A stretch of 64,000 nt of DNA from Octopus sinensis (taxonomy: Eukaryota), in contig NC_043021.1 in the NCBI RefSeq assembly GCF_006345805.1, positions 17,360,001-17,424,000 of the forward strand. The letters are read 5' to 3'. Made by a program: the position numbers and the translations under genes. The notes under the pieces were generated by a model that saw only the letters and a program-made list of their open reading frames with translations, had not been told where the DNA came from and made no database searches. This document shows, one piece after another, positions 1 to 64,000 of this stretch; the first letter of the stretch is position 1; each line of letters opens with the position of its first letter.

Positions 1-389
1 TTGACATGATAGGTTGCTAGCCACTACACATTCTTTATTTTCTCTCCTTGTTCCTTTCTGTTGAAGAGCGTAGGCTCGAAATGTTAAAGACTTTTTCCAC
101 TTCCCGAGCGTTATACTAATACATCTGTTTGTTGTCTACACCACCTGTCTTAATCTTTTGTTTTTTTAAGAATTCTCCCTATATATATATATATATATAT
201 GGTTCAAATTTGACATGATAGGTTGCTAGCCACTACACATTCTTTATTTTCTCTCCTTGTTCCTTTCTGTTGAAGGGCGTAGGTTCGAAACGTTAAAGAT
301 TTTTTCCCTTCCTGAGCATTATACTAATACATCTGTTTGTTGTCTACACCACCTGTCTTTGTCTTTTGGATATTTTGTGAATTCCCCCC
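1..389 (+). repeat. Two tandem copies (period ~209 bp) of a Penelope-pLTR-like repeat, each with a minimal hammerhead-like motif
   Basis: 1-180 and 210-389 are near identical. They contain cttt-CTGTTGA-AGAGC-GTAG-GCTC-GAAA-tgtt-aaag (54-89) and cttt-CTGTTGA-AGGGC-GTAG-GTTC-GAAA-cgtt-aaag (263-298). Confidence 0.6.
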
Positions 390-2086: not shown

Positions 2087-3067
2087 TTATTCGGCATCTG
2101 AACCGAGTCTGTCCAGCATGTGGTAGTTGAAATGGACTCGGTTTTCGAGGAAGACTTCGTTGGTTTTCTCCAGACTGACCGGTAAGCAACAACATCGGTC
2201 AGTGAGCGCCAGTTTGTATGTGATGAGCCAGATGATGAAGATGACTATGAAATTGGCCATGCCATGGGCCGCAAAGTACGTGGACAGAATGCTGATGTTG
2301 TAGTCCGTGATGTCCCACTTGTACGGGGAGCAGATGATCGTGCCGTAGTGGCACAGCCACGTGCCCTGCACGAGTGTGACGAACGAGCGTACGAATGGGA
2401 AGACTACCTGGTTGCGATAGTGGAACTCCAGTATGGTCACCACGACGGTCATAATGGCACAGTAAGTGACCAAGTTCTCACCGATCGAAGCCAGGCTGTC
2501 GTCTCGTTCATCGTCCATGACGTAGTGACCGAACAGAATTGCCTCGACGCCGAACGCGAATATGAAGATGCAGTAGTCGAGGCCCTGCGGCAGGCTATAA
2601 GTGCACGTCTGTGACCCGATGTTCACCAAACACGAGAGTCCGAAAGCCACAAGGATTATACAAGACCGCAATTTCAACATACTATTTTTAGCGTCGTTCA
2701 GTTCGGCACCCGCTCCAGCGCCACCACCGACCCAGTTGATTCCAGGCACATGTCGGTAATTTGTGACGAGTAAAAGGCCACAGATGATGAGGCAGATCTC
2801 GATGAAACTCTGTATCAGCTGCTTCCAGCGTTGCTTGCTGCAGGGGTAGACGAGCGACGAATGAAACTCGACGTGTTTCCACCTCATGAAGAAGAAGATG
2901 CGGGTCGTTTGCACGGTCCACCATAACGAGTACAGGATGAACATGACTCCGAGGATGAGGAAGTCAATGTAAGCACAAGCGAGTTCGGTATTGCTGTTGT
3001 TGCTGCTGCCGCTGCCGCTGGCCGGTGCATCGCTGCCTCCTTGACTTACGTTTGCACTGTGCACCAT
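2087..3067 (-). CDS. TMEM45/DUF716-family multi-pass membrane protein, 326 aa, single coding exon
   Basis: Long non-repetitive, GC-elevated ORF with ~7 hydrophobic segments. Motifs LPQGLDY, VEAILF, LVQGTW, KWD and YFAAH match recalled TMEM45 motifs (VPLGVD, MEGFLF, LQGTWFWQIG, EWD, CFCWH). Confidence 0.85.
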   Translation of the reverse strand: MVHSANVSQGGSDAPASGSGSSNNSNTELACAYIDFLILGVMFILYSLWWTVQTTRIFFFMRWKHVEFHSSLVYPCSKQRWKQLIQSFIEICLIICGLLLVTNYRHVPGINWVGGGAGAGAELNDAKNSMLKLRSCIILVAFGLSCLVNIGSQTCTYSLPQGLDYCIFIFAFGVEAILFGHYVMDDERDDSLASIGENLVTYCAIMTVVVTILEFHYRNQVVFPFVRSFVTLVQGTWLCHYGTIICSPYKWDITDYNISILSTYFAAHGMANFIVIFIIWLITYKLALTDRCCCLPVSLEKTNEVFLENRVHFNYHMLDRLGSDAE

Positions 3068-3074
3068 CCTTTAA

Positions 3075-8645: not shown

Positions 8646-9235
8646 CATATATGTATATATATATATATATATATATAGTGGGGCCCGTGCCAGTGGCACG
8701 TAAAAATCCCCCACTACACTCTTGGAGTGGTTGGCGTTGGGAAGGGCATCCAGCTGTAGAAACATTGCCAGATCAGATTGGAGCTGATGATGATAATAAT
8801 GGTGAAGATGATGGTGATAATGATGATGATGATGATAATGATGATCACATACTTATCAACATTGAACTTTTTTTTTTTCAATGTTACACCACTTGATATC
8901 ATCTGCTTTTTCCTTTCTGATTATTATCGTTGTGAGAGGAGTGGTTTGGTGCACTAATTAATTATTGATATATCAATAATAACAAAAGGTGAAAGTTCAA
9001 GCCTGCTGTTATTGGGTCAAGCAGGTGAGGAAGGTCAGAACGAAATGTCATTCAAATAAAACATCAGAAATGTTGTCACACATTCTGCACTTATTTTTTC
9101 CCCAATATGCTGATCATACTGTCAATCTAACACCATGTAATGATGATGATGATGATGATGATAATAATAATAATAATAATAATCTTTTCCACTGTAGGCA
9201 CAAGGCCCAAAATTTTGGGGGAGGAGGCCAGTCGA

Positions 9236-10160
9236 TTAGAAGAAGCAGACCAAACTCAACTGCAGTCTGACCTATATGCTGTGAGTCAATGGGCAGACAG
9301 AAACAAAATGCAACTGAACGAGGGAAAATTTGAGCTGATGCATTTTGGAAGAAAGTCCACACTAAAACAGCCATACTCTCTTCCTTCAGGAGAACCGCTC
9401 ACAGCCTCTAACAATATCAGAAATCTGGGCGTAATTGTTGATAACAATCTCAGTTGGAGTGCCCACATCAACAATAAGGTCAATATAGCTCGTAGGATGA
9501 GTTCCTGGATCTTAAGAACCTTCTGGTCCAGAGAACAAGGTGTCATCATACCACTTTTCTCTTCCTTTGTATGGCCACACCTGAATACTGCTGCCCACTG
9601 TGGTCTCCCCATACAAGACAAAACATCTCGAGGATTGCATCACCCCAGAGGGCACTCACTAAACGAATTAAAGGCATGGCTGCTCTCGATTATTGGGACT
9701 GCCTTAATGCTTTGAAACTCTTCTCTCTCCAGCACCGCCACGAGCAGTACATCATTTGTATGATGTGGAGAATATACCACCAACTTTGCCCAAATGACCT
9801 GAACATTGATTTCAAGGTTCATCCACGGTGGGGACCACGGGCCATACGTCCCCTGCCCAATTCAGGATCACAGCATATAGGTACACTGCAACATAATTTA
9901 TTTTCCTCAATAGGCCCTGCTCTGTTTAACATTGTCTCGAAAGAGATCAAAGAGATCAACTATAAATGGAGTTTGGATAGATTTCTTCAAGGAATACCGA
10001 ATAAGCCACCCATACCTGGATACAACTCACTCAACAAGAACTCACTATTTGAATGGACCATAAACAAAACTTGACTTAAACAGGATTTAGATAATCCTAT
10101 CAGGTGGTGCTACTAAGTTAGACATGGCCTGGACCAATCTTTGGTCGAAACAAATCTAAG
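9236..10160 (+). mobile_element. 5'-truncated CR1/L2-group LINE, ORF2 C-terminus (frameshifted) plus 3' UTR
   Basis: LQSDL..VSQWA..NKMQLN..KFELMHFG; NLGVIVDNNLSW..HI; PHL/EYCCPLWSP; GPALFN. Confidence 0.9.
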
Positions 10161-10342: not shown

Positions 10343-10435
10343 TAATTGGCAGATGAGTGCTCAGCATTTTAAAACTGTTGTAATACTTACAACATTTAAT
10401 AAAATGATGTAGTACGAAACGATCGTACCAAATTA
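10343..10435 (+). ncRNA. Type I hammerhead-like motif with long stem II (core variant CAGAUGA)
   Basis: taattgg-CAGATGA-gtgct...tgttgtaa tac ttacaaca...agtac-GAAA-cgatcg-TA-ccaaatta. Confidence 0.6.
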
Positions 10436-18435: not shown

Positions 18436-18610
18436 TAGGAAAAAAGCAACAAGAATGGATTAAAATCTCGGTACGATCGTTTCGTACGAGGACATCTTTA
18501 ATAAGCTACAAAAAATGCAGTGAATACACTGCATTTTTGTAGCTTATTAAGATGTCCTCGTACGAAACGATCGTACCGAGATTTTAATCCATTCTTGTTG
18601 CTTTTTTCTA
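18436..18610. repeat. Near-perfect ~175-bp hairpin palindrome; each arm carries the 3' half of an HHR (GAAA-CGATCG-TA)
   Basis: Arms are reverse complements around the loop aata (18523-18526). Downstream 18610-18720 is homologous to the reverse complement of 14780-14880. Confidence 0.9.
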
Positions 18611-22513: not shown

Positions 22514-23549
22514 TAAATGCTGCTGTGCATTTTGAGAGATATGCTAACTCGCCACTTCCCATTGCCTATTATTAACTGGCGAGTGGGGCATAGAGCACAT
22601 CTTACTCTATTCGCAGCAAGTATAGCAAGAACCCCACTGGTTCCATTTACCATAACAATATTCTACTGCAGTGGCATTGATTAGTTGAAATTGCCGAAAT
22701 ACGAGAAACTAAACAACAAATAGCTTACAAACTACAGAATTTTCTCAAGAACACAAAGAGAAAAAGATGTTTTATGTGACACATTCTACCAGTATTCGAA
22801 GTTTAAAGTGTTTAGTTACAAAGAAATTATTTTAAAAATCTGCCGGTCAAAGTGAAAAGATCCCCCATATAACCCTTGGGATCTATATAAGAAAAAAAAT
22901 TTTAACAATTTTATTGTGTCTGGGGAGAGTCATTATGTTTTAATACTTTACTACTTAACACACGCACTGGTTCGATTTCCACTCATTTCCTTATGTATTT
23001 TTTTCTAAAATTTCCGTTGCTTCTTGCATCCTCTTCAATAGACGTTGATTCTGTCCGTTATCAGAGCTGCGTTCTTTTTGTTTGTTTGTTTGTACGTATG
23101 TGTGTGCGTCAGCACTGAAAGTTTATGAGGGGTCCACCCGAATAAAACAGGAATCAAAAGGGTCCACCAAAAGGGTCCACAGACGAAAAATGGTTGGGAA
23201 ACCTCGTTTTGCAGTTTTTCTTTTACTCAGTTCTCTCCCCTGCTTCTTCCCAATTCTCCTGGTTTTGACGAACATTTCTCTTCTTCCATCAAGAGAATGA
23301 TTTCATTCGCCTCCTCTTGCCTGCCGATATTATTCAGCCAGAATATAATTTGTTCCATGTCTACCCAAGTCCCAAATAGACGTCGTTGATTGGTTGAAAT
23401 TGCCGAAATACGAGAAATTTAACAACAAATAGCTTACAAACTACAGAATTTTCTGAAGAACGCCAAGAGAAAAAGATGTTTTATAAACACATTCTACCAG
23501 TATACGAAGTTTAAAATTTTTTAGTTACAAAGAAATTATTTCTAAAATT

Positions 23550-23971
23550 ATTTCACTTTGACTGGCAGATTTTAGAAATAATTTCTTTGTAACTAAAAAT
23601 TTTTAAACTTCGTATACTGGTAGAACGTGTTTATAAAACATCTTTTTCTCTTGGCTTTATTGAGAAAATTCTATAGTTTGTAAGATATTTGTGGGGGTTT
23701 TTTTCTTCAATTTCTGCAATTTCAACCAATCAATGACGTGTATTGAGTTAAAAAACATTCTGTGCCGTATGAATATGTCCCTCGTTTAAGAAACAGATTG
23801 GGTTTATTTACATTTGTGAAGAAAAAAAGATACCCTTTCCCCCACCCCTAACCCTAACCCTAACCCTAAAATAGATTGAAATGCAATAGATCGATTCTAG
23901 GGTCATAATTATGAGTGACAATTTCATGTGACACCGTTAGAAAAAACTGCCGGTCAAACCGAAAAGATCCC
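23550..23971. mobile_element. MITE-like element with ~25-bp TIR (GGGATCTTTTC..TTTGACCGGCAG) and internal (CCCTAA)4; partial opposite-orientation copies at 22675-22864 and 23383-23548
   Basis: Ends tttcactttgactggcag / ctgccggtcaaaccgaaaagatccc; telomere-type repeat at 23846-23869. Confidence 0.6.
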
Positions 23972-24381
23972 AAAATTCTATCACGGAAAGGAACAATCAT
24001 TCACTTCTTTGCTCCTTTTCCATAAGTTAATGATCACTATTCTGAAAGCCCACAGATAAACTATTACACATAAAACTCAGGCAGGAATGATTCTGATCAT
24101 ATCTCTGTTCAATCAGTTCTAACCTTTAGCACAAGAACAATAGCAACTTTAAAAAACTAACCAAGATCCGTTTCTAAAGGTTAAACAATTTCAATTTACT
24201 CTAAGGGGGAAATAACTCAAAGAAAGAATCCTGTAGTTGTCTCCCTTGTAAAAATTTTTTTTAATTTCTTTTTTTTCTCTCCCCTTTTTACATTTTAACA
24301 AAGTTTCATTGTCTGGGGAGAGCCATTCTCTTTTGGTGCCTTATAATGTAACACACTCACCAGTAAATTTTTATTTAATAA

Positions 24382-24797
24382 AATGAACTTTTATTTTGTT
24401 TTTGGATTTGGTTTGCAGGATTCTTTATGTGAGTTCGTGTGTTGAAGCATATTCTGTTGTGTCTGAGGAGAGTCATTTTCTTTTCGTGCCTTATAATTTA
24501 ACACACTCACCGGTAAAATTTCCACTTATTTCTTCAAAAATTTTTTTTATCCTTCTAAAATTTTCGTTGCGTCTTGCAACCTTTTCGATCGTTTTGAGAG
24601 TCAAAACTATTGAAAGACGCAACGAATATTTTAGAAGAATAAAAAAGAAATAAGTAGAAATTTTACCGGTGAGTGTCTTAAATTATAAGGCACCAAAAGA
24701 AAATTACTCTTCCCAGACACAACAAAATATGTTTCAACACACGAACTCACATAAAGAATCCTGCAAACCAAATCCAAAAACGAAATAAAAGTTCATT
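24382..24797. mobile_element. ~415-bp imperfect palindrome (fold-back/MITE-like); related fragments at ~22915-23045 and 24310-24370
   Basis: aatgaacttttattttgtttttggatttggtttgcagg... / ...cctgcaaaccaaatccaaaaacgaaataaaagttcatt; centre gttttgagagtcaaaac. Confidence 0.8.
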
Positions 24798-24933
24798 GGA
24801 TTAAGAGATTCAGTTGAAAGCTGGATACAACGTTTTGCAGAATTTAATAGTGAATATCCGTATGCTATGTTCAAATCTCAGTGATGTCGACTTCAGCTTA
24901 CATTAGCTTGAAATCTATAATCTAATTCGGTTT

Positions 24934-27442: not shown

Positions 27443-27913
27443 ATATATATATATATATATACTTGTATATATAAATAGATGTGTGTATTTTTCCCTTGTT
27501 AACAATTAACCTGTACATACATACATACACACACACACATATATACATACACACACATAAACAAATGTCTGTATGGATGTTTTAAGTAAAGATTACGAAA
27601 GAAAAATAACTCAGAGTCTAGTGGCATCTATGTGATCAATATAAACAAGTATATATATATATATGTATATATATGTGTGTGTGTGTATGTTTCTTTATAT
27701 ATAATTTTTATACCTATATTATTGCGGCGTACGTAGACTCGTTCCCTTATGTATGCTTACATTCTATCCATTTGTACGACTTCTAAAAACTTTCTCTATA
27801 CTTCACTTTCTGTCTTTCTCTTTCTCGCCTTGATTCTTTGGTCCCCCTCTTCCCCCACGAATGAACAAAACCAACATACCAGGTTTTGTTCATTCATGAT
27901 ATATTTTGAATTC

Positions 27914-27977
27914 GTTTCACTGAAGAGCAAGAGACGTAGATAATACATTAATTGCGAAATCACAGGTGATCTGGAAC
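27914..27977 (+). ncRNA. Type I hammerhead ribozyme with canonical core, AUC cleavage triplet
   Basis: gtttca-CTGAAGA-gcaa...ttgc-GAAA-tcac-ag-gtga-TC-tggaac; all three stems pair. Confidence 0.8.
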
Positions 27978-29844
27978 TAAATTCTGTTTTTAAATGTCTT
28001 GCTTCGAGAGCTGCATTCGGTACGATTTGTTTATTTTTGGTAGTTATGACTTTAAAAGTCCGTCCTAGCGTGTGGCATTTATGTGTAATAATGCCCTCTA
28101 TATAATATAAATAAATATTTTCAAGTTAAAAAATTTACAGATTTTTTCTCTTATGAGGTTTTTCACGCTAACTACCTGATAATTTCTTATTAAGATTTTA
28201 TCCTATTTTAAATATATATATATATATTATATATTATATTATATAATATATATAATAGTTGAAATTTAGAGAAAAACATATATAATCATCATCACTTAAC
28301 GTCCGCTTTCCATGCTAGAATGGGTTGGACGATTTGACTGAGGGCTGGCGAACCAGATGGCTGCACCAGGCTCCAATCTTGATCTGGCAGAGTTTCTACA
28401 GCTGAATGCCCTTCCTAACGCCAACCACTCCGAGAGTGTAGTGGATGCTTTTACGTGCCACCAGCACGGGTGTCAGTCAGGCGGTACTGGCAACGACTTC
28501 GCTCGAATGTTTTTACCCGTACCAGTAAGGCGATGCTGGTAACGATCACGCTCGAATGGTGCCTTTTACATGCCACCGGACGTCACATATTTAACACCCC
28601 TCCTCCCTTAACACACACCATTTTCTGGTATTTTTCAAATGATTGGTCGCCTTGAGCTCTTGTCATTTTGGCCCGACACTCAACTAGTCTTGAAATGTGT
28701 TGTCATTCAGAAAACATGGGTTCAGCTTAAACGAAGGTTTGCTTCTTGGAGCAAAAAGACAAAGGAAACACTTTGAAGGTAATGGCAATAGAATTTAACG
28801 AGTTTTAGGCCAAATTTTATGCTGGTAATTTGTTAGGGTTCGTCAACCATCATAAAAAAATGCTTAGCTGTTGTAATACAACTTTACAGAACCCTATATT
28901 GTAATTGATCACAAGCGGATGCTATAATGTCTATTTGGGGACTGATTCAAGAAGATGGCTTCTAATGATCGTCTGCTTCACGCGCCTTTGCATTGAGCAG
29001 TACATTAACAACATGTGCGATCTTTGTGCTTCCTTAGAATCTTCTATGTTTGGCTGCCACTTTTCTTCCAATTGATTTCATATTTGGTGTATCGATGTAG
29101 TTTTGTATGGTAATCATTGACATGAAATTCATTTCTGCCATAAATCAATAAATAAAGAGTTAATAGCTTTTAAAATTTCCAAATTTGTGTACTTTTTAGC
29201 CAATCGAAAGCCACAGACATGTAGGTGCCTGTTTCCATAGTAACAATCCAAACTGTAAATAAGTTGCTTATTAAATGCTTAAAACATGATGTATGAGGTA
29301 GTCGGGAGATGTGCAAAAAATGATAGCTAAATAGGCCTTAAATTACGAACCCCAATTTTTTGTGCATAATCGTATAAATTCCAGCGTAAAATACAAATTC
29401 GCAAACATTTTTCTGAAAATTCAAAACATTTTTTAAAGTTACAAGTTTTTATATGATGTGCATATAGCAGAATCCCGTCAATATTTCACTTGTTTACAGT
29501 TGACAACACGTAATGACAGCTTCCAAATCCTATTTTCTGACTGGGTAAAAACGATCAAACTTTTAACTTTTTTTTAAAAAATGCTTCCGGAAAAAGTGAG
29601 ATTCAGCATGGAAAATTACCCCAATACACCAGATTTCAAAATTTTCACTAAACTTTGAAATTTCCACAGGTGCAACCAGACAGAAAAAAGTCCCTTATTG
29701 ACAACTTATGCATTGCATATGTATGTATGCAATGCATATATGTGTATATGCATGTAAGCTGCGTTCATATGCTTTGCGTCTATGTATGAGTTCATGCTTG
29801 AATCTGTTTATACGGATACATATATAATAGTATATCTGATTGTA

Positions 29845-31103
29845 CGAGGGGCGTTCAATAAGTAATGCCCCCTGACCCACTTGCAGTTGTTTGATCTATG
29901 TGAAATTTTGCATGTGCACTTATTTATACCTCTATAGATTAAGTGGCGAATTACAGCTCTGAACTAATTGTGGTTTCTGATTTACAGGTGTTTGAACTAA
30001 GTCAAGTGTGAAATGGAGCCTGTTGAGTGTCGAGCAGTGATCTGGTTTTTGTATTTGAAAGGACGCACACCACGGGAGACTTTTGATGAAATGAAAGTAA
30101 CTTATGGTGATGATACCCCATCATATGACCTTGTAAACGCTGGCATTGTGAATTCAAACATAGTCGGAACTCTGTGGAAACAGCTCCCAGATCTGGTCGC
30201 CCCCTTCTGCCGTTGATGAGACGTCTGTCCGTCAAGTTGAGGCTGCCATTTTGGAAGGTCAACGCATAACTATTCGCCAAATAGCCCATAAGGTCAAGAT
30301 TAGTACCGGGTCTTTGGAAACTATCATTCATGACCATTTGCATATGCAAAAGGTGTCTGCCAGATGGATTTCCAGGTTGCTCACACCTTTCCAGAAGCAA
30401 GAACGCGTTGAGTGCTCGAGGATGAATTTGGAGATGTGCCAAGAAGATGAGTCAAAATTTTTCAAAAGACTGATCACACAGGATAAAACCTGGGTCCATC
30501 ACTATGATCCATAGACCAAAGTCCAGTCAATGCAGTGAAAGCACCGCGACTCACCTCCTCCAAAGAAGGCAAGGGTGCAGCCCTCCGCTGACAAGGTTAT
30601 GCTCACAGTCTTCTGGGACCAGGACGGAGTAGTGATGACAGATTTCCTGGCAAAGGGTACCACAATTACAGGAGCCTATTATTATGCTTCACTTTTGAGG
30701 AAATTAAGAGAAGGAGGCGGGGCAAGATCAGCAAAGGCATCCTCCTCCTGCAGGACAACGCTCCGGTTCACCTCTCGCGTGTCGCCAGATCAGAAGTACA
30801 GGCGTGCAGCTATGAACTCCTCCCCTTGCACCCTCTGATTTTCACCTCTTCCCAGTCATGAGTTGATTTTGAAAGGAAAGCGTTTCCCAGATGATGCAGC
30901 GCCTTGATTCTGAAGTCACGTCGTGGTTGGAGGACCAAGCTGGGGTCTTCTACAAAAACGTCTCCAGAGCTGTATCAAACGATGGGAGAAATGCATAACT
31001 CTGGGTAGTTCCTATGTAGGAAAAGACTAATAACTGTGCCAAGTGTCGTTGCTCTACTGCTATGGGAAGTGGGTCAGGGGCATTACTTATTGAACGCCCC
31101 TCG
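29845..31103 (+). mobile_element. Full-length defective mariner transposon (~1.26 kb, irritans/Hsmar2-like) with TA TSD
   Basis: TIR cgaggggcgttcaataagtaatgcccc(c)tgacccactt at both ends, flanked by TA. Transposase from 30013 with RAVI.FL, WISRLL, ITQDKTWVHHYDP, KVMLTVFWD and QDNAPVH; stops and frameshifts present. Confidence 0.95.
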
Positions 31104-32514: not shown

Positions 32515-32873
32515 ATATATGCCTTCTGGCATGTATATATATATATATAATGCCTTCTGGCATGTATGTATAATGCCCTCTATATATAAATTAATATGTT
32601 CAATAAGAAATAATTATTTTCGAAATTTTTTCTCTTATGAGGTTTTTACGCTATCTACCTGACAATTTCTTGTTAAGTTTTCCTTATAAGTAGTTGTCCT
32701 TAATTGCTAAATTTTTATTCCGAAAAAACTTTTCCTCTCCCGAAATGCAATTCGTAAAAGTTTGCCATTTACCCGGATGTGATATATGTAAACTCACCCA
32801 TGTGCTTCGTTGATGTTGATCAGTTAGCTGATCGGCTTAAGCGGGGCAGGGTCGTTGTTTATTTATAACATTC

Positions 32874-32921
32874 AGGCCTGCTGATGATTACGTAAGTATG
32901 AAATCACTGTGATACAGGTCT
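32874..32921 (+). ncRNA. Type I hammerhead ribozyme, array copy 1
   Basis: aggcctg-CTGATGA-t-tac-gtaa-gta-t-GAAA-tcac-t-gtga-TA-caggtct; predicted cut after 32914 (AUA). Confidence 0.8.
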
Positions 32922-33348
32922 ATATTTTTAAATGTCTTACTTTGAAAAATTGCATTCGGTGGGAGTAGTAATATTTTGGTAGAAATGACTGATTGTCCCT
33001 CTTAGCGTTTGGCATGTATGTATAATGCCTTCTGGCATGTATGTATAATGCCCTCTATATATAAATTATATGTTCAATAAGAAATAATTATTTTCGAAAT
33101 TTTTTCTCTTATGAGGTTTTTACGCTATCTACCTGACAATTTCTTGTTAAGTTTTCCTTATTAAGTAGTTGTCCTTAATTGCTAAATTTTTATTCCGAAA
33201 AAACTTTTCCTCTCCCGAAATGCAATTCGTAAAAAGTTTGCCATTTACCGGATGTGATATATGTAAACTCACCCATGTGCTTCGTGATGTTGATCAGTTA
33301 GCTGATCGGCTTAGCGGGGCAGGGTCGTTGTTTATTTATAATACATTC

Positions 33349-33395
33349 AGGCCTGCTGATGATTACGTAAATATGAAATCACTGTGATACAGTCT
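33349..33395 (+). ncRNA. Type I hammerhead ribozyme, array copy 2 (stem II G>A, 1-nt stem I deletion)
   Basis: aggcctg-CTGATGA-ttacgtaaatat-GAAA-tcactgtga-TA-cagtct. Confidence 0.65.
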
Positions 33396-33822
33396 ATATT
33401 TTTAAATGTCTTACTTTGAAAAATTGCATTCGGTGGGATTAGTAATATTTTGGTAGAAATGACTGATTGTCCCTCTTAGCGTTTGGCATGTATGTATAAT
33501 GCCTTCTGGCATGTATGTACAATGCCCTCTATATATAAATTAATATGTTCAATAAGAAATAATTATTTTCGAATTTTTTCTCTTATGAGGTTTTTACGCT
33601 ATCTACCTGACAATTTCTTGTTAATTTTTCTTATTAAGTAGTTGTCCTTAATTGCTAAATTTTTATTCCGAAAAAACTTTTCCTCTCCCGAAATGCAATT
33701 CGTAAAAGTTTGCCATTTACCCGGATGTGATATATGTAAACTCACCCCACCATGTGCTTGTATGTTGATCAGTTAGCTGATCGGCTTAAGCGGGGCAGGG
33801 TCGTTGTTTATTTATAACATTC

Positions 33823-33870
33823 AGGCCTGCTGATGATTACGTAAGTATGAAATCACTGTGATACAGGTCT
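33823..33870 (+). ncRNA. Type I hammerhead ribozyme, array copy 3
   Basis: Identical to copy 1. Confidence 0.8.
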
Positions 33871-34299
33871 ATATTTTTAAATGTCTTACTTTGAAAAATT
33901 GCATTCGGTGGGATTAGTAATATTTTGGTAGAAATGACTGATTGTCCCTCTTAGCGTTTGGCATGTATGTATAATGCCTTCTGGCATGTATGTATAATGC
34001 CCTCTATATATAAATTAATATGTTCAATAAGAAATAATTATTTTCGAAATTTTTTCTCTTATGAGGTTTTTACGCTATCTACCTGACAATTTCTTGTTAA
34101 GTTTTCCTTATTAAGTAGTTGTCCTTAATTGCTAAATTTTATTTCCGAAAAAACTTTTCCTCTCCCGAAATGCAATTCGTAAAAGTTTGCCATTTACCCG
34201 GATGTGATATATGTAAACTCACCCATTGCTTCGTTGATGTTGATCAGTTAGCTGATCGGCTTAAGCGGGGCAGGGTCGTTGTTTATTTATAATACATTC

Positions 34300-34347
34300 A
34301 GGCCTGCTGATGATTACGTAAGTATGAAATCACTGTGATACAGGTCT
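34300..34347 (+). ncRNA. Type I hammerhead ribozyme, array copy 4
   Basis: Identical to copy 1. Confidence 0.8.
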
Positions 34348-34799
34348 ATATTTTTAAATGTCTTACTTTGAAAAATTGCATTCGGTGGGATTAGTAATAT
34401 TTTGGTAGAAATGACTGATTGTCCCTCTTAGCGTTTGGCATGTATGTATAATGCCTTCTGGCATGTATGTATAATGCCTTCTGGCATGTATGTATAATGC
34501 CCTCTATATATAAATTAATATGTTCAATAAGAAATATTATTTTCGAAATTTTTTCTCTTATGAGGTTTTTACGCTATCTACCTGACAATTTCTTGTTAAG
34601 TTTTCCTTATTAAGTAGTTGTCCTTAATTGCTAAATTTTTATTATCCGAAAAAACTTTTCCTCTCCCGAAATGCAATTCGTAAAAGTTTGCCATTTACCC
34701 GGATGTGATAATGTAAACTCACCCATGTGCTTCGTTGATGTTGATCAGTTAGCTGATCGGCTTAAGCGGGGCAGGGTCGTTGTTTATTTATATACATTC

Positions 34800-34847
34800 A
34801 GGCCTGCTGATGATTACGTAAGTATGAAATCACTGTGATACAGGTCT
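34800..34847 (+). ncRNA. Type I hammerhead ribozyme, array copy 5
   Basis: Identical to copy 1. Confidence 0.8.
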
Positions 34848-34991
34848 ATATTTTTAAATGTCTTACTTTGAAAAATTGCATTCGGTGGGATTAGTAATAT
34901 TTTTGGTAGAAATGACTGATTGTCCCTCTTAGCGTTTGGCATGTATGTATAATGCCTTCTGGCATGTATGTATAATGCCCTCTATATATAA

Positions 34992-35031
<40 letters not shown>

Positions 35032-43888: not shown

Positions 43889-43990
43889 TAGAAGGAGCTT
43901 CTACAGGACTAGAAACTGTTTCATTCAAGAGAAATCTTCTGAAGATTTCTCTTGAATGAAACAGTTCTAGTCCTGTAGAAGCTCCATCTA
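43889..43990. repeat. ~100-bp palindrome centred on an HHR-like CTGAAGA core
   Basis: ggagcttctacaggactagaaactgtttcattcaagagaaatcttc-t-gaagatttctcttgaatgaaacagttctagtcctgtagaagctcc. Confidence 0.9.
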
Positions 43991-53489: not shown

Positions 53490-53962
53490 ATACTACAAAA
53501 TTAGAGAATGGAGAAATATACTTAAATCAGTAAAACATCAACTATCCGATGATACTCAATCCATACTTTAATACACCATTACATATGAGTAAAGGCAATA
53601 CATAAAATGAAATGAGATATACATTTTCACTATTATAACAAATTTAATTTAATTCTCTGAAGAGGCCGTGGGGCATCCTTGTTAATGCCTCATTTATACC
53701 TGCCTTTATAGCTTATAGGTTAAATGAGGTATGACTGTCCTCACTGCCGAAACAGCTGTCAGTTTTGATTTATTTGCATATTATATTTGAAAATTTTTTA
53801 CTTATATCTCTTTATCTTTTTACTATTACTGTATATCTCATTTCATTTTATGTATTGCCTTACTCATATGTAATGGTGTATTAAAGTATGGATTGAGTAT
53901 CATCGGATAGTTGATGTTTTACTGATTTAAGTATATTTCTCCATTCTCTAATTTTGTAGTAT
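53490..53962. repeat. ~133-bp inverted repeats (53490-53623 / 53830-53962) flanking the hammerhead
   Basis: tactacaaaattagagaatgg...gagatataca versus tgtatatctc...ccattctctaattttgtagta. Confidence 0.9.
53651..53766 (+). ncRNA. Type I hammerhead ribozyme with ~85-nt stem II hairpin, GUC triplet; stem I weak
   Basis: ct-CTGAAGA-ggc...gcctcattta...taaatgaggt...gcc-GAAA-cagctg-TC-ag. Confidence 0.7.
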
Positions 53963-55702
53963 TAATTTACGGTAATATTATTACCTTTACCCATATAATG
54001 CAATAGATGAACTGATTGTTTGACAATTTTTAACATCTATGTATTATTTTTGTTGGGTACCTATCTAGCAGTATATTGGATATATATTATCCCATGGTGG
54101 GTTGAATTTTCAACCCCTATCTCATTTTATAACCTATATATACATATATATATATATACACATACATATATACATACATATATATATGTATGTATATATA
54201 TATGTATATATACACATACATATATACATACATATATATATGTATGTATATATATGTATATATACACATACATATATACATACATATATATATATACATA
54301 TATACATACATATACATATATATATATATACATATACATATATATACATATACACATATACATATATACATATACATATATATATATACATATATATATG
54401 TACATGTGCGTGTATGTACATAAGCAGCCACGTTTCTATGTGCGACAAGCTCATGCATTCTTTATTTGAATTGTGGATAATCCTCCAGTCTTTGGAATAA
54501 GTGGCTCTTTTTAATCATACATAATAAATCTTTTATCTTTTACCGGTTTCACTAAGCGGACCACGCCCACGCTGGGGCACTGCCTCGAAAAGCTTAATGG
54601 AATACATTAACTCCCAGTACTAATGTTTGATTTTTATTTCGTTAACGTCTGACACCTATTCTATTACTCTCTGTTGCTGGACTGCTAAGTTATGGGAATG
54701 TAAACAGACCGACACCGGTTGCCGAGTGGTGAGGGAGGGAGAAACGCAAACGTACACATATACACAAACACTCACATTTATACTTAAGCAACAGGCTTCC
54801 ACACAGTTTCCATCAACCCAAATTCACCCACAAGATACTGGTTGGCCCAGGGTTATGGTATAAAATACTTGACCAGAGGAGGCAAGTGTGACTGAACCAC
54901 AAACCACATGGTTTGTAGGTATATATATACATATACACACACACACACATATATATATATCCTTGTGTGTGGATTTGGTAGATGGAAACTGAAAGAAGCC
55001 TGTCGTATATATGTATATATATATATGTGTGTGTGTATATATGTTGTGTATCTGTGTTTGTCCCCCCCAAAAATTTCTTTGACAACCGATGCTGGTGTGT
55101 TTAGGTCCCCGTAACTTAGCGGTTCGGCAAAAGAGACTCATAGAATAAGTACTAGGCTGACAAAGAATAAGTCCAGGGGTTGATTTGATTCGACTAAAGG
55201 CAGTGCTCCAGCATGGCCACAGTCAAATGACTGAAACAAATAAAAGAATATCTATTATATAAAATCCGTTCTGTCTGTCTGTGTGTGTGTCTTCTAGGAT
55301 CTCGGGCATCCTCCATCCAATTGCGCTCAAAGTTGATCTGTAGATACCGACGGTATCAGGGCGTGTATAAGTCTTGAAAAAGTTACAAAAATTTATTCCA
55401 GGTGAGAAAGTGATTGATAAAGCCGTGGGAACGTGCATTTGTAAAATCGTTTTTCTTGGAATAGAAAAAAGGCTATCTTTATTTCTTCTTTTGCTGGTGT
55501 CTCAAATTTAGGTTAAATCAGTGTTTCTGAAAGGGGAGGCCTATGGGACGGTCAGACAGGTTGTTTTGAGAAAATTTGGTTTAAATGTTTGACAACTTAG
55601 CACCATCCATTGGACGGGGGGGGGGGGCTTTTGCTCGTAAATATATATATATATATGGCAAATGAAAGACGGAAGATGGAATATATGAGAATTTATTATC
55701 TA

Positions 55703-55808
55703 ATCACGACAATTGTTTCGACACATTTAGCATCGATCCCTCATGCGTGGAACACTCCACAACTGGTTCAGGATCATCTGGTGGAGCAGGTGTGTCTCAT
55801 CAGGTGAT
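55703..55808 (-). ncRNA. Type I hammerhead ribozyme, canonical core, long stem II, GUC triplet
   Basis: atcac-CTGATGA-gacaca...gatcct...gggatc...tgtgtc-GAAA-caattg-TC-gtgat. Confidence 0.85.
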
Positions 55809-56189
55809 AGATAGACAGTACCACAATGTAACTTCTCATTAAGCTACCAGGTGTAAACCATTCATTTCATTATCCAATATACATATATATATATATTTGA
55901 TTTTTTGATTTTTCCAGTTTCAGCTAATGAGCTGTGGCCATGCTGGGGCACCGCCATATATATATATATATATATAAAAACTGTACTTGGAGAAGAAGAA
56001 ACGAAACGAAACGAATTGAATCGAATCGATGCGAGGGCGCTCAGTCATACAATAGTGTAATGAATAAAATATATGCATACATATATATATGTACGTAGCT
56101 TTATGAAAATAGACAAAAGACGAAGGCAGGTGGAAAACAAACGAACAATTGTATTAGTATGGCGCTCAGGAAATATAAATAAAACAAGT

Positions 56190-56225
56190 CTTTAACGTTT
56201 CGAGCCTACGCTCTTCAACAGAAAG
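56190..56225 (-). ncRNA. Minimal hammerhead-like motif (CUGUUGA variant)
   Basis: cttt-CTGTTGA-AGAGC-GTAG-GCTC-GAAA-CG-TT-aaag. Confidence 0.5.
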
Positions 56226-56462
56226 ATACACAGAGAGAGAAAAACACAGAAAGAAGGAGAGAAAAAAAATGCGTGCAGTAGCTAACGAATCAACATGGCG
56301 ATCTGATTTCGGCCAGAGGTCAAAGATCAAACATGAGACGCGAGAGCGAAATAAGGGGAGATAATAGGGTTGATAAAAGGGTTGAGGGACCAGCTAAAAG
56401 TGCGTGGGAGGGGTCTGGATGTGTGTATGTATAGGGTTGGTGTATGTATTAGTATGTATAAG

Positions 56463-56976: not shown

Positions 56977-57011
56977 GTTTAACGTTTCGAGCAGAGCTCT
57001 TCGTCGGAAAC
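56977..57011 (-). ncRNA. Minimal hammerhead-like motif (CCGACGA variant)
   Basis: gttt-CCGACGA-AGAGC-TCT-GCTC-GAAA-CG-TT-aaac; stem I covaries with cttt/aaag of the sister family. Confidence 0.5.
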
Positions 57012-61520: not shown

Positions 61521-61632
61521 TTCCTGATGATTTGGGTAAACGTAGTTTTTGAATCTAATTCAAATTTATTACATATCATAGTAATGCAATTATACATTTG
61601 CTGGTGTTTATCTTCACGAAACAGCTGTTGAG
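61521..61632 (+). ncRNA. Hammerhead-like motif with long stem II (degenerate)
   Basis: ttc-CTGATGA-..gggtaaac...gtttatct..-GAAA-cagctg-TT-gag. Confidence 0.5.
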
Positions 61633-61932: not shown

Positions 61933-62013
61933 AGCTCTGATGAAGCTATAAGGCAATACACAAGCACCTAGCTATGAGCACATGGTGTCTTAAAGCAGAA
62001 ACAACTGTAGGCT
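61933..62013 (+). ncRNA. Type I hammerhead-like motif with long stem II, GUA triplet
   Basis: agct-CTGATGA-a-gct.taaggca...tgtctta.agc-a-GAAA-caactg-TA-ggct. Confidence 0.6.
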
Positions 62014-64000
62014 AATGGAGTTCCTTACATAATTTCTTGTTCCTCTGTTAATAACTTACATTCTTATCATCTTCTGTACATAATTAATGCTTTTTTTCTG
62101 AAGCATATGTATATTGTGTTCTAACACCATATTTATTAGTATCACTATACCGAAACAAAAGAAAAACTGTTTTACATCAAACTGAAGGAGTACTCAATAC
62201 ATCTGGTAGAGTACATAAATTTATTATTCTTTAACAGTATTGACAGTGACTTCGAAGTCTTAGCCAGCTAAGCCATCATTGGATTGCCAATACTATTCTT
62301 GTTAACAAATTATATACATATATATATATATATTCTTTTACTTGTTTCTGTCATTTGACTGCGGCCATGCTGGAGCACCACCCTGAAGGATTTTAGTCAA
62401 ACAAATCAACCCAAGGACTTACTTTTTTAAAAGCCTCGAACATATTCTATCGATCGCTTTTGCTGAACCGCTTCTTTCAGTTTACCAAATCCACTCACAA
62501 GGCTTTGGTCGACCCGAGGCTTTAGTAGAAGACACATGCCCAAGGTGCCATGCAGTGGGACTGAACCTGGAACGATGTGGGTGGAAAGCAAGCTTCTTAC
62601 CACACAGCCACGCTTGTGCCTACACACACACACACACACATATATATGTATATAAAATGGATCTTAGAATTTCTGATCAAGAGGTTGAAGAAGCCTGTAT
62701 ATGGTTGAGTACCCCACAGATTCGTGTCTTTAATATCATTCTCAGGGGAAATTTGTGAGACAGTGTGACAAAGTTGGACATTAGAATTAAACGACATAAT
62801 GCACGTGGCAGGCTTCCATACAGTTTCCTACAGCAAATCCTATCATGAAAGCTACCCCAAGATTAACAACTTCATCACATCAATAGATCCTCTAAGTGTT
62901 CGGTTGACTTGCTAAAAACAGTAGCCAAGTCTCTCCCCACCAAATTATACGCTACCTACTATATTGGGTCAAAACTTGAAAGAAGGACACACATTAGATA
63001 ATGTAATCCAGGTGCACTGTGCCTCGAAAAAAAGGACAGGGTGGTCGTAATTGGAGTGCTTTTTCTTTTTTTCAGAAGTGTGCTTAATCAGAGCCCAACA
63101 ACAACCAGCATTGTGTATCTTGGACTACGTTACTTAGTATAGCATCCCTAGAAGATGGATAGGGAATTATCTGAGGTGTTCTAGCTGTTATTTCAAGCTG
63201 ATCAAGCAATTATATAGAGGCTCCGACTGCCTTCTGCTGTTATTTAGCCCCAGCAAGACTTCGCGTACACAGGCGTTTCATCGGTGACCATCCCATCCGA
63301 TCTTTTATGCAAACTTAATACATCTACATATATATATTACCCCGCCGCCCATTTTTTTAATGACGGACGGTAAAGGGGGTTTTCGCCGATGGAGATTTGA
63401 CTGCTCTTTCTAGCGGTGAGTGAGTGGCTAGCAACAGCAACAATAGTCCCTCTCTATTACTGGACCATCCGACCAACCGTCCGACCGACCAGACGGTTAT
63501 TCGTCCCTCTCCGCGCCACCGTCCCTCCTCCCTTCATCACCAAACGGAAACCACACGCACCCACACACATATACATACATACATACATACATACATACAA
63601 TCACACACATACACCACGTAACGTGTATGGACATGCTATGAAAAGAGAGGAGGAGGGGAAAGGAACAGTGGTAGGAGGAAGGACAAGTATTTATAATATC
63701 AACACTCCTCCCCCACCCTCCCCCTACCCCAAACACCCCCTGTGAGAGAACCTCTACGTCGTGTCGAGGGACTCGCTAGAAATAGCAGTCCAACCTCCCT
63801 CAAAACCACACATACACAACTGTCTTGAATGAAGGCAGACACATTAGGTAATGTAGTAGGTACGTGGTTCTTAGAGACCCCGGGGGGGAAAAGCTGTTAT
63901 CCTCCCATGCTGGAATAGTTTTGATCATAGCTAAACAGCAGGCCCCTACATAGCTTTTTTGGCCAGCTAAAAACAACAGTCGCTTTTAAGACTGGCATAT

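Follow-up and report, generated by a model that had tools for sequence, protein, structure and literature searches.

The window analyzed here, a 64,000-nt stretch of Octopus sinensis DNA taken as a whole, contains a tandem array of hammerhead-bearing repeats, which we tentatively interpret as a new non-LTR retrozyme derived from a Penelope-like element (PLE), resembling axolotl HHR_Amex2 in cutting slowly as a monomer and faster when in tandem; we place this reading a little short of probable. Pairing between copies probably helps the array hammerheads to cut, and this effect is more likely to be a graded enhancement than an on/off copy-number switch.

Every unit of the array carried a type I hammerhead (5/5), with C3-to-C3 spacings of 475, 474, 477 and 500 between units, and the array lacked any ORF of at least 100 aa, so that the unit is non-coding. 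Short non-coding tandem units with a hammerhead each and a GC content of 0.33 (below 50%) are what is expected of non-LTR retrozymes, and the metazoan elements described in PMC7229834 share with the array both this organization and a self-paired predicted circle. The unit length lies inside the 51–972 bp range of a 2026 preprint (bioRxiv 10.64898/2026.07.22.740005) and just over the 150–450 bp given in PMC7229834. The predicted circular monomer folded at −128.2 kcal/mol compared with −89.7 ± 5.2 kcal/mol for 60 shuffles (z −7.4), internal 23-mer hairpins supplying part of this signal. With regard to 12 family variants placed on the predicted circle, eight were unpaired, one kept its pair and three broke it.

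The array family was abundant in the contigs of three public runs (3443, 1014 and 612 pieces), with two pieces in a fourth; all of these counts are of contigs. All 12 frequent substitutions (at least 4%, contigs of the four runs) were located outside 32874–32921 and none was listed inside, which is weakly informative, as ~1.3 of the 12 listed sites would be expected there. A metagenome scan with the family-flank pattern gave 0 matches, and the 120 metagenome matches to the hammerhead pattern were rejected as chance, with stems in 1/120 and a BLAST match to the array unit in none. No Rfam match reached the gathering score, and the 150 matches listed out of 372 comprised microsatellite-driven miRNA only and no hammerhead. 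Literature searches for such repeats in cephalopods turned up no paper.

Table 1. Positions of the array, its hammerheads and related motifs within the window.
Feature	Position	Strand	Details
Tandem array	32542..35000	+	5.1 units of ~475 bp; (TA)n flanking both sides; GC 33%
Hammerhead copy 1, type I	32874..32921	+	stem I 7 bp; CUGAUGA 32881-32887; GAA 32900-32902
UGAU (core UGA + preceding U)	32884..32887	+	complementary to AUCA (5' arm of stem III); pairing predicted to give an inactive 'core trap'
Stem III AUCAC-U-GUGAU	32903..32913	+	ATCAC-T-GTGAT in DNA
Hammerhead copy 2	33349..33395	+	stem I 3' strand one G short; stem II G>A (decay or sequencing error)
Hammerhead copy 3, intact	33823..33870	+	
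Hammerhead copy 4, intact	34300..34347	+	
Hammerhead copy 5, intact	34800..34847	+	
Truncated solo relative of array unit	27905..28207	+	75-79% identity; complete hammerhead 27914-27977 (C3 at 27920)
Minimal-type motif	262..299	+	ACGU stem III; core CUGUUGA (A6 lost)
Minimal-type motif	56189..56226	-	ACGU stem III; core CUGUUGA (A6 lost)
Minimal-type motif	56977..57011	-	ACGU stem III; core CCGACGA (U4C)
Solo hammerhead-like motif	10346..10431	+	core CAGAUGA at 10350 (U4A); 59-nt stem II; stem III ACGAUCGU
Near-perfect foldback, ~170 nt	18439..18608	.	two mirror 3' halves (GAA-ACGAUCGU-A)
Solo hammerhead	53650..53770	+	CUGAAGA at 53657; 85-nt stem II; stem III ACAGCUGU; C17; stem I eroded
Solo hammerhead	55697..55813	-	core intact (C3 at 55803); 77-nt stem II; stem III ACAAUUGU; GUC site
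Eroded solo hammerhead	61521..61632	+	CUGAUGA at 61524; 87-nt stem II region; stem III ACAGCUGU; U17; stem I 3 bp

In copy 1, stem II consists of a U.U, three base pairs and GUAA, and cleavage is predicted after A17 at 32914, within an AUA triplet. The segment 32900–32914, i.e., GAA, stem III and A17, is common to all five array copies. The full set of core elements (CUGANGA, GAAA and UH) was present in 5/5 array copies and in the motifs at 27920, 53657, 55803(-) and 61524, and was incomplete at 18567, at 10350 (U4A) and in the CUGUWGA minimal copies. The solo relative at 27920 combines CUGAAGA with a 29-nt stem II, a stem III of AUCAC-AG-GUGAU and C17; like the array, it lies between (TA)n runs, with different end points within the unit. 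Comparison of stem I between the array and this one relative, on which the covariation rests, showed 6/7 positions paired in both, with four two-sided changes and one one-sided change, counted in the structural register because MAFFT misaligned the solo hammerhead.

Stem III of the array is self-complementary and has a tandem partner. Since short-loop hairpins are always self-complementary, the real question is whether the stem forms in the monomer. Folded alone, the array stem III gave 4 bp closed by a CUG loop at +0.8 kcal/mol; between two copies, 5+5 bp formed around a U.U at −10.1 kcal/mol. Palindromes were also present as the 8-mers ACGATCGT at 10419 and 18567, ACAGCTGT at 53752 and 61621 and ACAATTGT at 55709–55716 on the minus strand, each with 2 bp and a tetraloop when alone (+2.4 kcal/mol), and as ACGT at 290, 56198(-) and 56985(-). 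In the energy calculation, the ACGU stem could not form a hairpin alone, placing it within the 0–2 bp helix III class, with the 8-mers at the border of this class and the array stem outside it. Thus, the palindromes reported in the original prediction were found at all of the positions it named, and its description of them as near-loopless applies to the minimal ACGU type only, not to the array or the 8-mers. Its extension of palindromy to other hammerhead families is borne out by the 8-mers themselves, with the qualification that 18567 lacks CUGANGA, 10350 carries U4A and four minimal copies have lost A6. Palindromy is not universal: the AG center at 27920, seen too in loose ends at 32909 in runs X1 and X4, is non-palindromic, as is the stem III ACAACUGU of a weak candidate at 61937; the original prediction had overlooked both motifs.

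The palindromes were far more frequent than expected. All six CGAAAC-N4-GT sites in the window were palindromic, compared to 6/12 for the looser GAAAC-N4-GT and 20/199 for background AC-N4-GT sites, and 100 dinucleotide shuffles gave a mean of 0.08 palindromic sites with a maximum of one. Two of the six sites are mirror images in one foldback and related to 10419; therefore, the six represent ~4 lineages. Viral hammerheads served as a folding control: a set of 126 loci with 133 core boxes yielded 75 distinct type I-like motifs, which are of the GUC type, GC-rich and of predicted cleavage; none of the 75 had a palindromic stem III, and stem III energy was negative in 74. The penalty for the active single fold was 3.4 kcal/mol in the array against a viral median of 0.56 kcal/mol, with only 1/75 viral motifs at or above 3.4. 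Separately, six of the viral loci (L131, L166, L171 and L185–L187) held two to three type I-like hammerheads each, spaced by a few hundred bases.

The four motifs at 10350, 53657, 55803(-) and 61524 have a stem II of 59–87 nt. No same-strand partner of their own family was found within the window for the 8-mer motifs, and 53752 and 61621 shared no BLAST similarity. The motif at 53650–53770 is enclosed by 103-nt perfect inverted arms (53490–53592/53860–53962). A complete hammerhead at 18567 was rejected, as no CUGANGA box within one substitution occurred on either strand; the site is one arm of a foldback. The inverted flanks at 53657 and 18567 are similar to structures described for PLE insertions. 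With its intact core and GUC site, 55803(-) is the best solo candidate ribozyme in the window; its stem I comprises 5 bp, a bulge and 5 bp. A weak hammerhead candidate was noted at 61937–62020, 300 nt from the 61524 motif. Further, a ~95-nt foldback at 43893–43988 is centered on CUGAAGA (43939), its right half being a hammerhead that lacks the stem I 5' strand, with a stem II of U.U, 3 bp and a tetraloop, a 4-bp stem III whose 8-nt loop holds CUAG, and a GUA site. In a hammerhead scan that gave 21 rows, about 10 were dropped by eye as likely chance (4066, 9025, 23321, 28150, 31961, 43030, 23038 and others).

The minimal family showed CUGUUGA or CUGUAGA in 4/4 copies (60–100, 267, 26850 and 56221(-)), i.e., a family-wide loss of A6, and two of these four copies have also lost the ACGU palindrome. 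For this type, a strict need for a dimer is likely, if it is active at all.

Folding was modeled with ViennaRNA, which includes neither tertiary nor magnesium terms. The single active fold of the array accounted for ~0.4% of the ensemble and was never the MFE structure, while the core trap, UGAU:AUCA, was predicted in 72–97% of the structures sampled, three-unit windows included. Sampling of the monomer circle gave 0/300 active structures, and in multi-copy MFE folds 0/18 copy instances adopted the single active fold and nine were in the trap. PMC1636495 describes traps in which the cleavage triplet sequesters core bases; the partner strand differs in the array trap. A perfect double hammerhead was predicted, unconstrained, in 3/5 multi-copy MFE folds and in 3/6 two-copy cofolds (array, 27920 and 10350). 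In the exact ensemble, the double exceeded the single fold in 2/8 windows (~2-fold) and was 50–1500-fold less likely in 6/8; folding of the whole array at 20 °C gave no double hammerhead. Scoring two singles against one double as a tie (within 1.8 kcal/mol in 8/12 settings, the double ahead by 2.3–6.5 kcal/mol in 4/12) was abandoned, because per site the single wins most windows. Core stabilization outside the model would count twice for the double, which could shift the balance in its favor in three-unit contexts. Hence the idea that stem III is weak alone and pairs between copies is supported by a penalty above 74/75 viral motifs and by the double folds, and tempered by the ensemble; the modeling allows dimer enhancement and does not establish a need for two copies.

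The rarity of the single fold, its absence from the circle samples, the excess of palindromes over chance and their absence from the viral hammerheads would all be in line with a strict dimer switch, in which a lone copy is unable to cut, leaving monomer circles and solo insertions inactive. The minimal Schistosoma mansoni motif behaves comparably, with no activity as a monomer and low activity as a dimer (PMC4209133). However, a 4-bp hairpin with a triloop is available to the array stem III, the related subfamily has its non-palindromic AG center, and the double form was disfavored in 6/8 ensemble windows. Further, the Amex1 monomer is 6% cleaved in one hour, its dimer much more, and coral and mussel retrozyme monomers, with a helix III that as described is shorter than that of the array, cleave well at ~0.8 and 0.1 per min (PMC7229834). 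We regard strict switching as unlikely for the array, and the claim in the original prediction that cleavage needs two copies was not supported. Nor can silence of solo copies be credited to the palindrome, as had been proposed, because most of them are truncated or altered in the core; tandem copies are in any case required to excise a monomer, even where each site is self-sufficient (10.64898/2026.07.22.740005). The dimer model with a regulatory reading is already in print (PMC4209133), the switch also in PMC6765202, and it is the on/off form of the proposed copy-number switch that is less likely here.

A second possibility, which we also doubt, is that a dead or near-dead ribozyme resides in a satellite now spread by DNA-level amplification, the palindromes being relics of a PLE ancestor. 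In the array, U.U replaces G10.1-C11.1 at the base of a stem II of only 3 bp, the site is AUA, and a relative found as a loose end in the run contigs retains C11.1; yet the core is intact in 5/5 copies, with no frequent variant in the family, and the unit folds strongly as a circle. A basal U.U in helix II is likewise present in Amex2, which is active (PMC7229834), apparently in the Hydra PLE motif, and at 43939. Most solo motifs in the window are eroded, and 8/9 predicted Xenopus retrozyme dimers were uncleaved (bioRxiv 10.64898/2026.07.22.740005), a result that weighs for a dead satellite and against our preferred reading alike.

Least probable is efficient monomer cleavage as in coral and mussel, with loop 1–loop 2 contacts and magnesium stabilizing the single fold and the palindrome adding little: efficient monomer cleavage is described for most invertebrate type I motifs (PMC7761336), the mussel motif showing it even without typical tertiary nucleotides (PMC7229834), AUA motifs show good co-transcriptional cleavage (PMC1636495) and the local stem I would be the first to form during transcription, but the predicted single-fold penalty of the array is an outlier, transcription would produce the trap strand ahead of the 3' arm of stem III, and palindromy is kept across ~4 lineages.

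A facultative retrozyme hammerhead, the preferred reading, itself has to accommodate the double being favored in only 2/8 windows, the prevalence of the predicted trap, the lack of a double fold at 20 °C, and the fact that no PLE frame (RT/GIY-YIG) was found in the Pfam matches of the 35 ORFs scanned (127 listed in the 64-kb window). The only Pfam match among those 35 was a 327-aa open frame at 2087–3070 (-), to DUF716 (E 1.4e-07). The broken frames at 9131–10074 (+) resemble the end of a LINE-type reverse transcriptase, judging by a sequence motif, and were rejected as PLE; the broken frame at 30164–30861 (+) resembles a mariner-type transposase. The scanned pieces of both gave no Pfam match. 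Long inverted repeats at 23425–23692 and 24375–24804, with 124- and 160-nt arms that are 93–94% complementary, are MITE-like or foldback.

The closest parallel is axolotl HHR_Amex2, 22% cleaved as a monomer in 1 h and much more as a dimer (PMC7229834). Both have U.U at the helix II base and a short helix III, which in Amex2 is 2 bp plus a tetraloop; with this shared base and a longer helix III, we place the array motif among the facultative dimers. It differs from the retrozymes described in PMC7229834 in a helix III that exceeds theirs by one to two pairs and carries a triloop, in the AUA site, and in the predicted core trap. Dimer cleavage is on record for hammerheads of the newt/axolotl and minimal PLE types (PMC4209133, PMC7229834), in line with what the original prediction states of newt-type and minimal PLE motifs. 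In the double hammerheads of newt satellite 2 and ASBVd (Forster et al. 1988, as cited), the stems III of two copies pair; those of newt, ASBVd and PLE have 1–2 bp, whereas the array stem III is longer, so that a need for a partner is not directly implied.

A further close parallel is provided by the PLE pseudo-LTR hammerheads in PMC4209133, which have in common with the window the minimal ACGU type and a palindromic consensus ('GAAAN Palind NU H'); Fig. S3 there includes palindromes of 8 nt and of odd length. The Drosophila willistoni PLE motif there has an 8-nt palindrome around AGCU, in a family of up to 85 tandem 450-bp units, and the Hydra motif, as read here, has U.U with a short helix II, an odd near-palindrome with a central U, and A17, its GAAA column being inferred. 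In contrast, no PLE frame was found beside the window motifs, and the 59–87-nt helix II far exceeds that in the rows of Fig. S3 compared. The 2026 preprint ties non-LTR retrozymes to Penelope-like pseudo-LTRs (10.64898/2026.07.22.740005). A palindromic helix III also appears in PMC3088659 (Fig. S8), PMC6765202, PMC6466107 and PMC6155905; in the work of Perreault et al. 2011 (PMC3088659), the repeat-type hammerheads are from other taxa, and two such candidates are described as inactive as monomers.

We infer the following course for the array, a tandem non-coding hammerhead repeat whose probable source is a Penelope-like pseudo-LTR. Read-through transcripts would be cut after A17 of every unit, giving ~475-nt monomers that, to judge from the retrozyme family, may be circularizable. 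Each ribozyme would cut alone, slowly, because of its weak stem III, its 3-bp stem II with a basal U.U, the AUA triplet and the competing UGAU:AUCA fold. In multimers, two copies would swap stem I strands while their stems III pair into 10 bp, which would open the core and raise the rate, a dimer effect that would be graded rather than on/off. It is a doubtful further step that the AUCA arm locks the UGAU core in monomers and circles by design, only a second copy freeing the arm, and that, jointly, the genome holds type I families with a 59–87-nt helix II and an 8-nt palindrome. Short-helix descriptors may miss hammerhead families of the latter kind.

A palindromic helix III, dimer cleavage and the regulatory reading are all already published; the array element itself is new. 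Lunse et al. in 2017 reportedly observed dimer cleavage of PLE hammerheads. As the proposed mechanism is known, the gain from confirming it would be a further family of animal retrozymes. The natural variants (U center with CUGAUGA; AG center with CUGAAGA) offer a ready test of the determinants of single versus double cleavage. PMC7229834 raises the question of how animal retrozyme circles escape re-cutting; the monomer lock, if true, would be a sequence-encoded answer to it and would explain stable circles.
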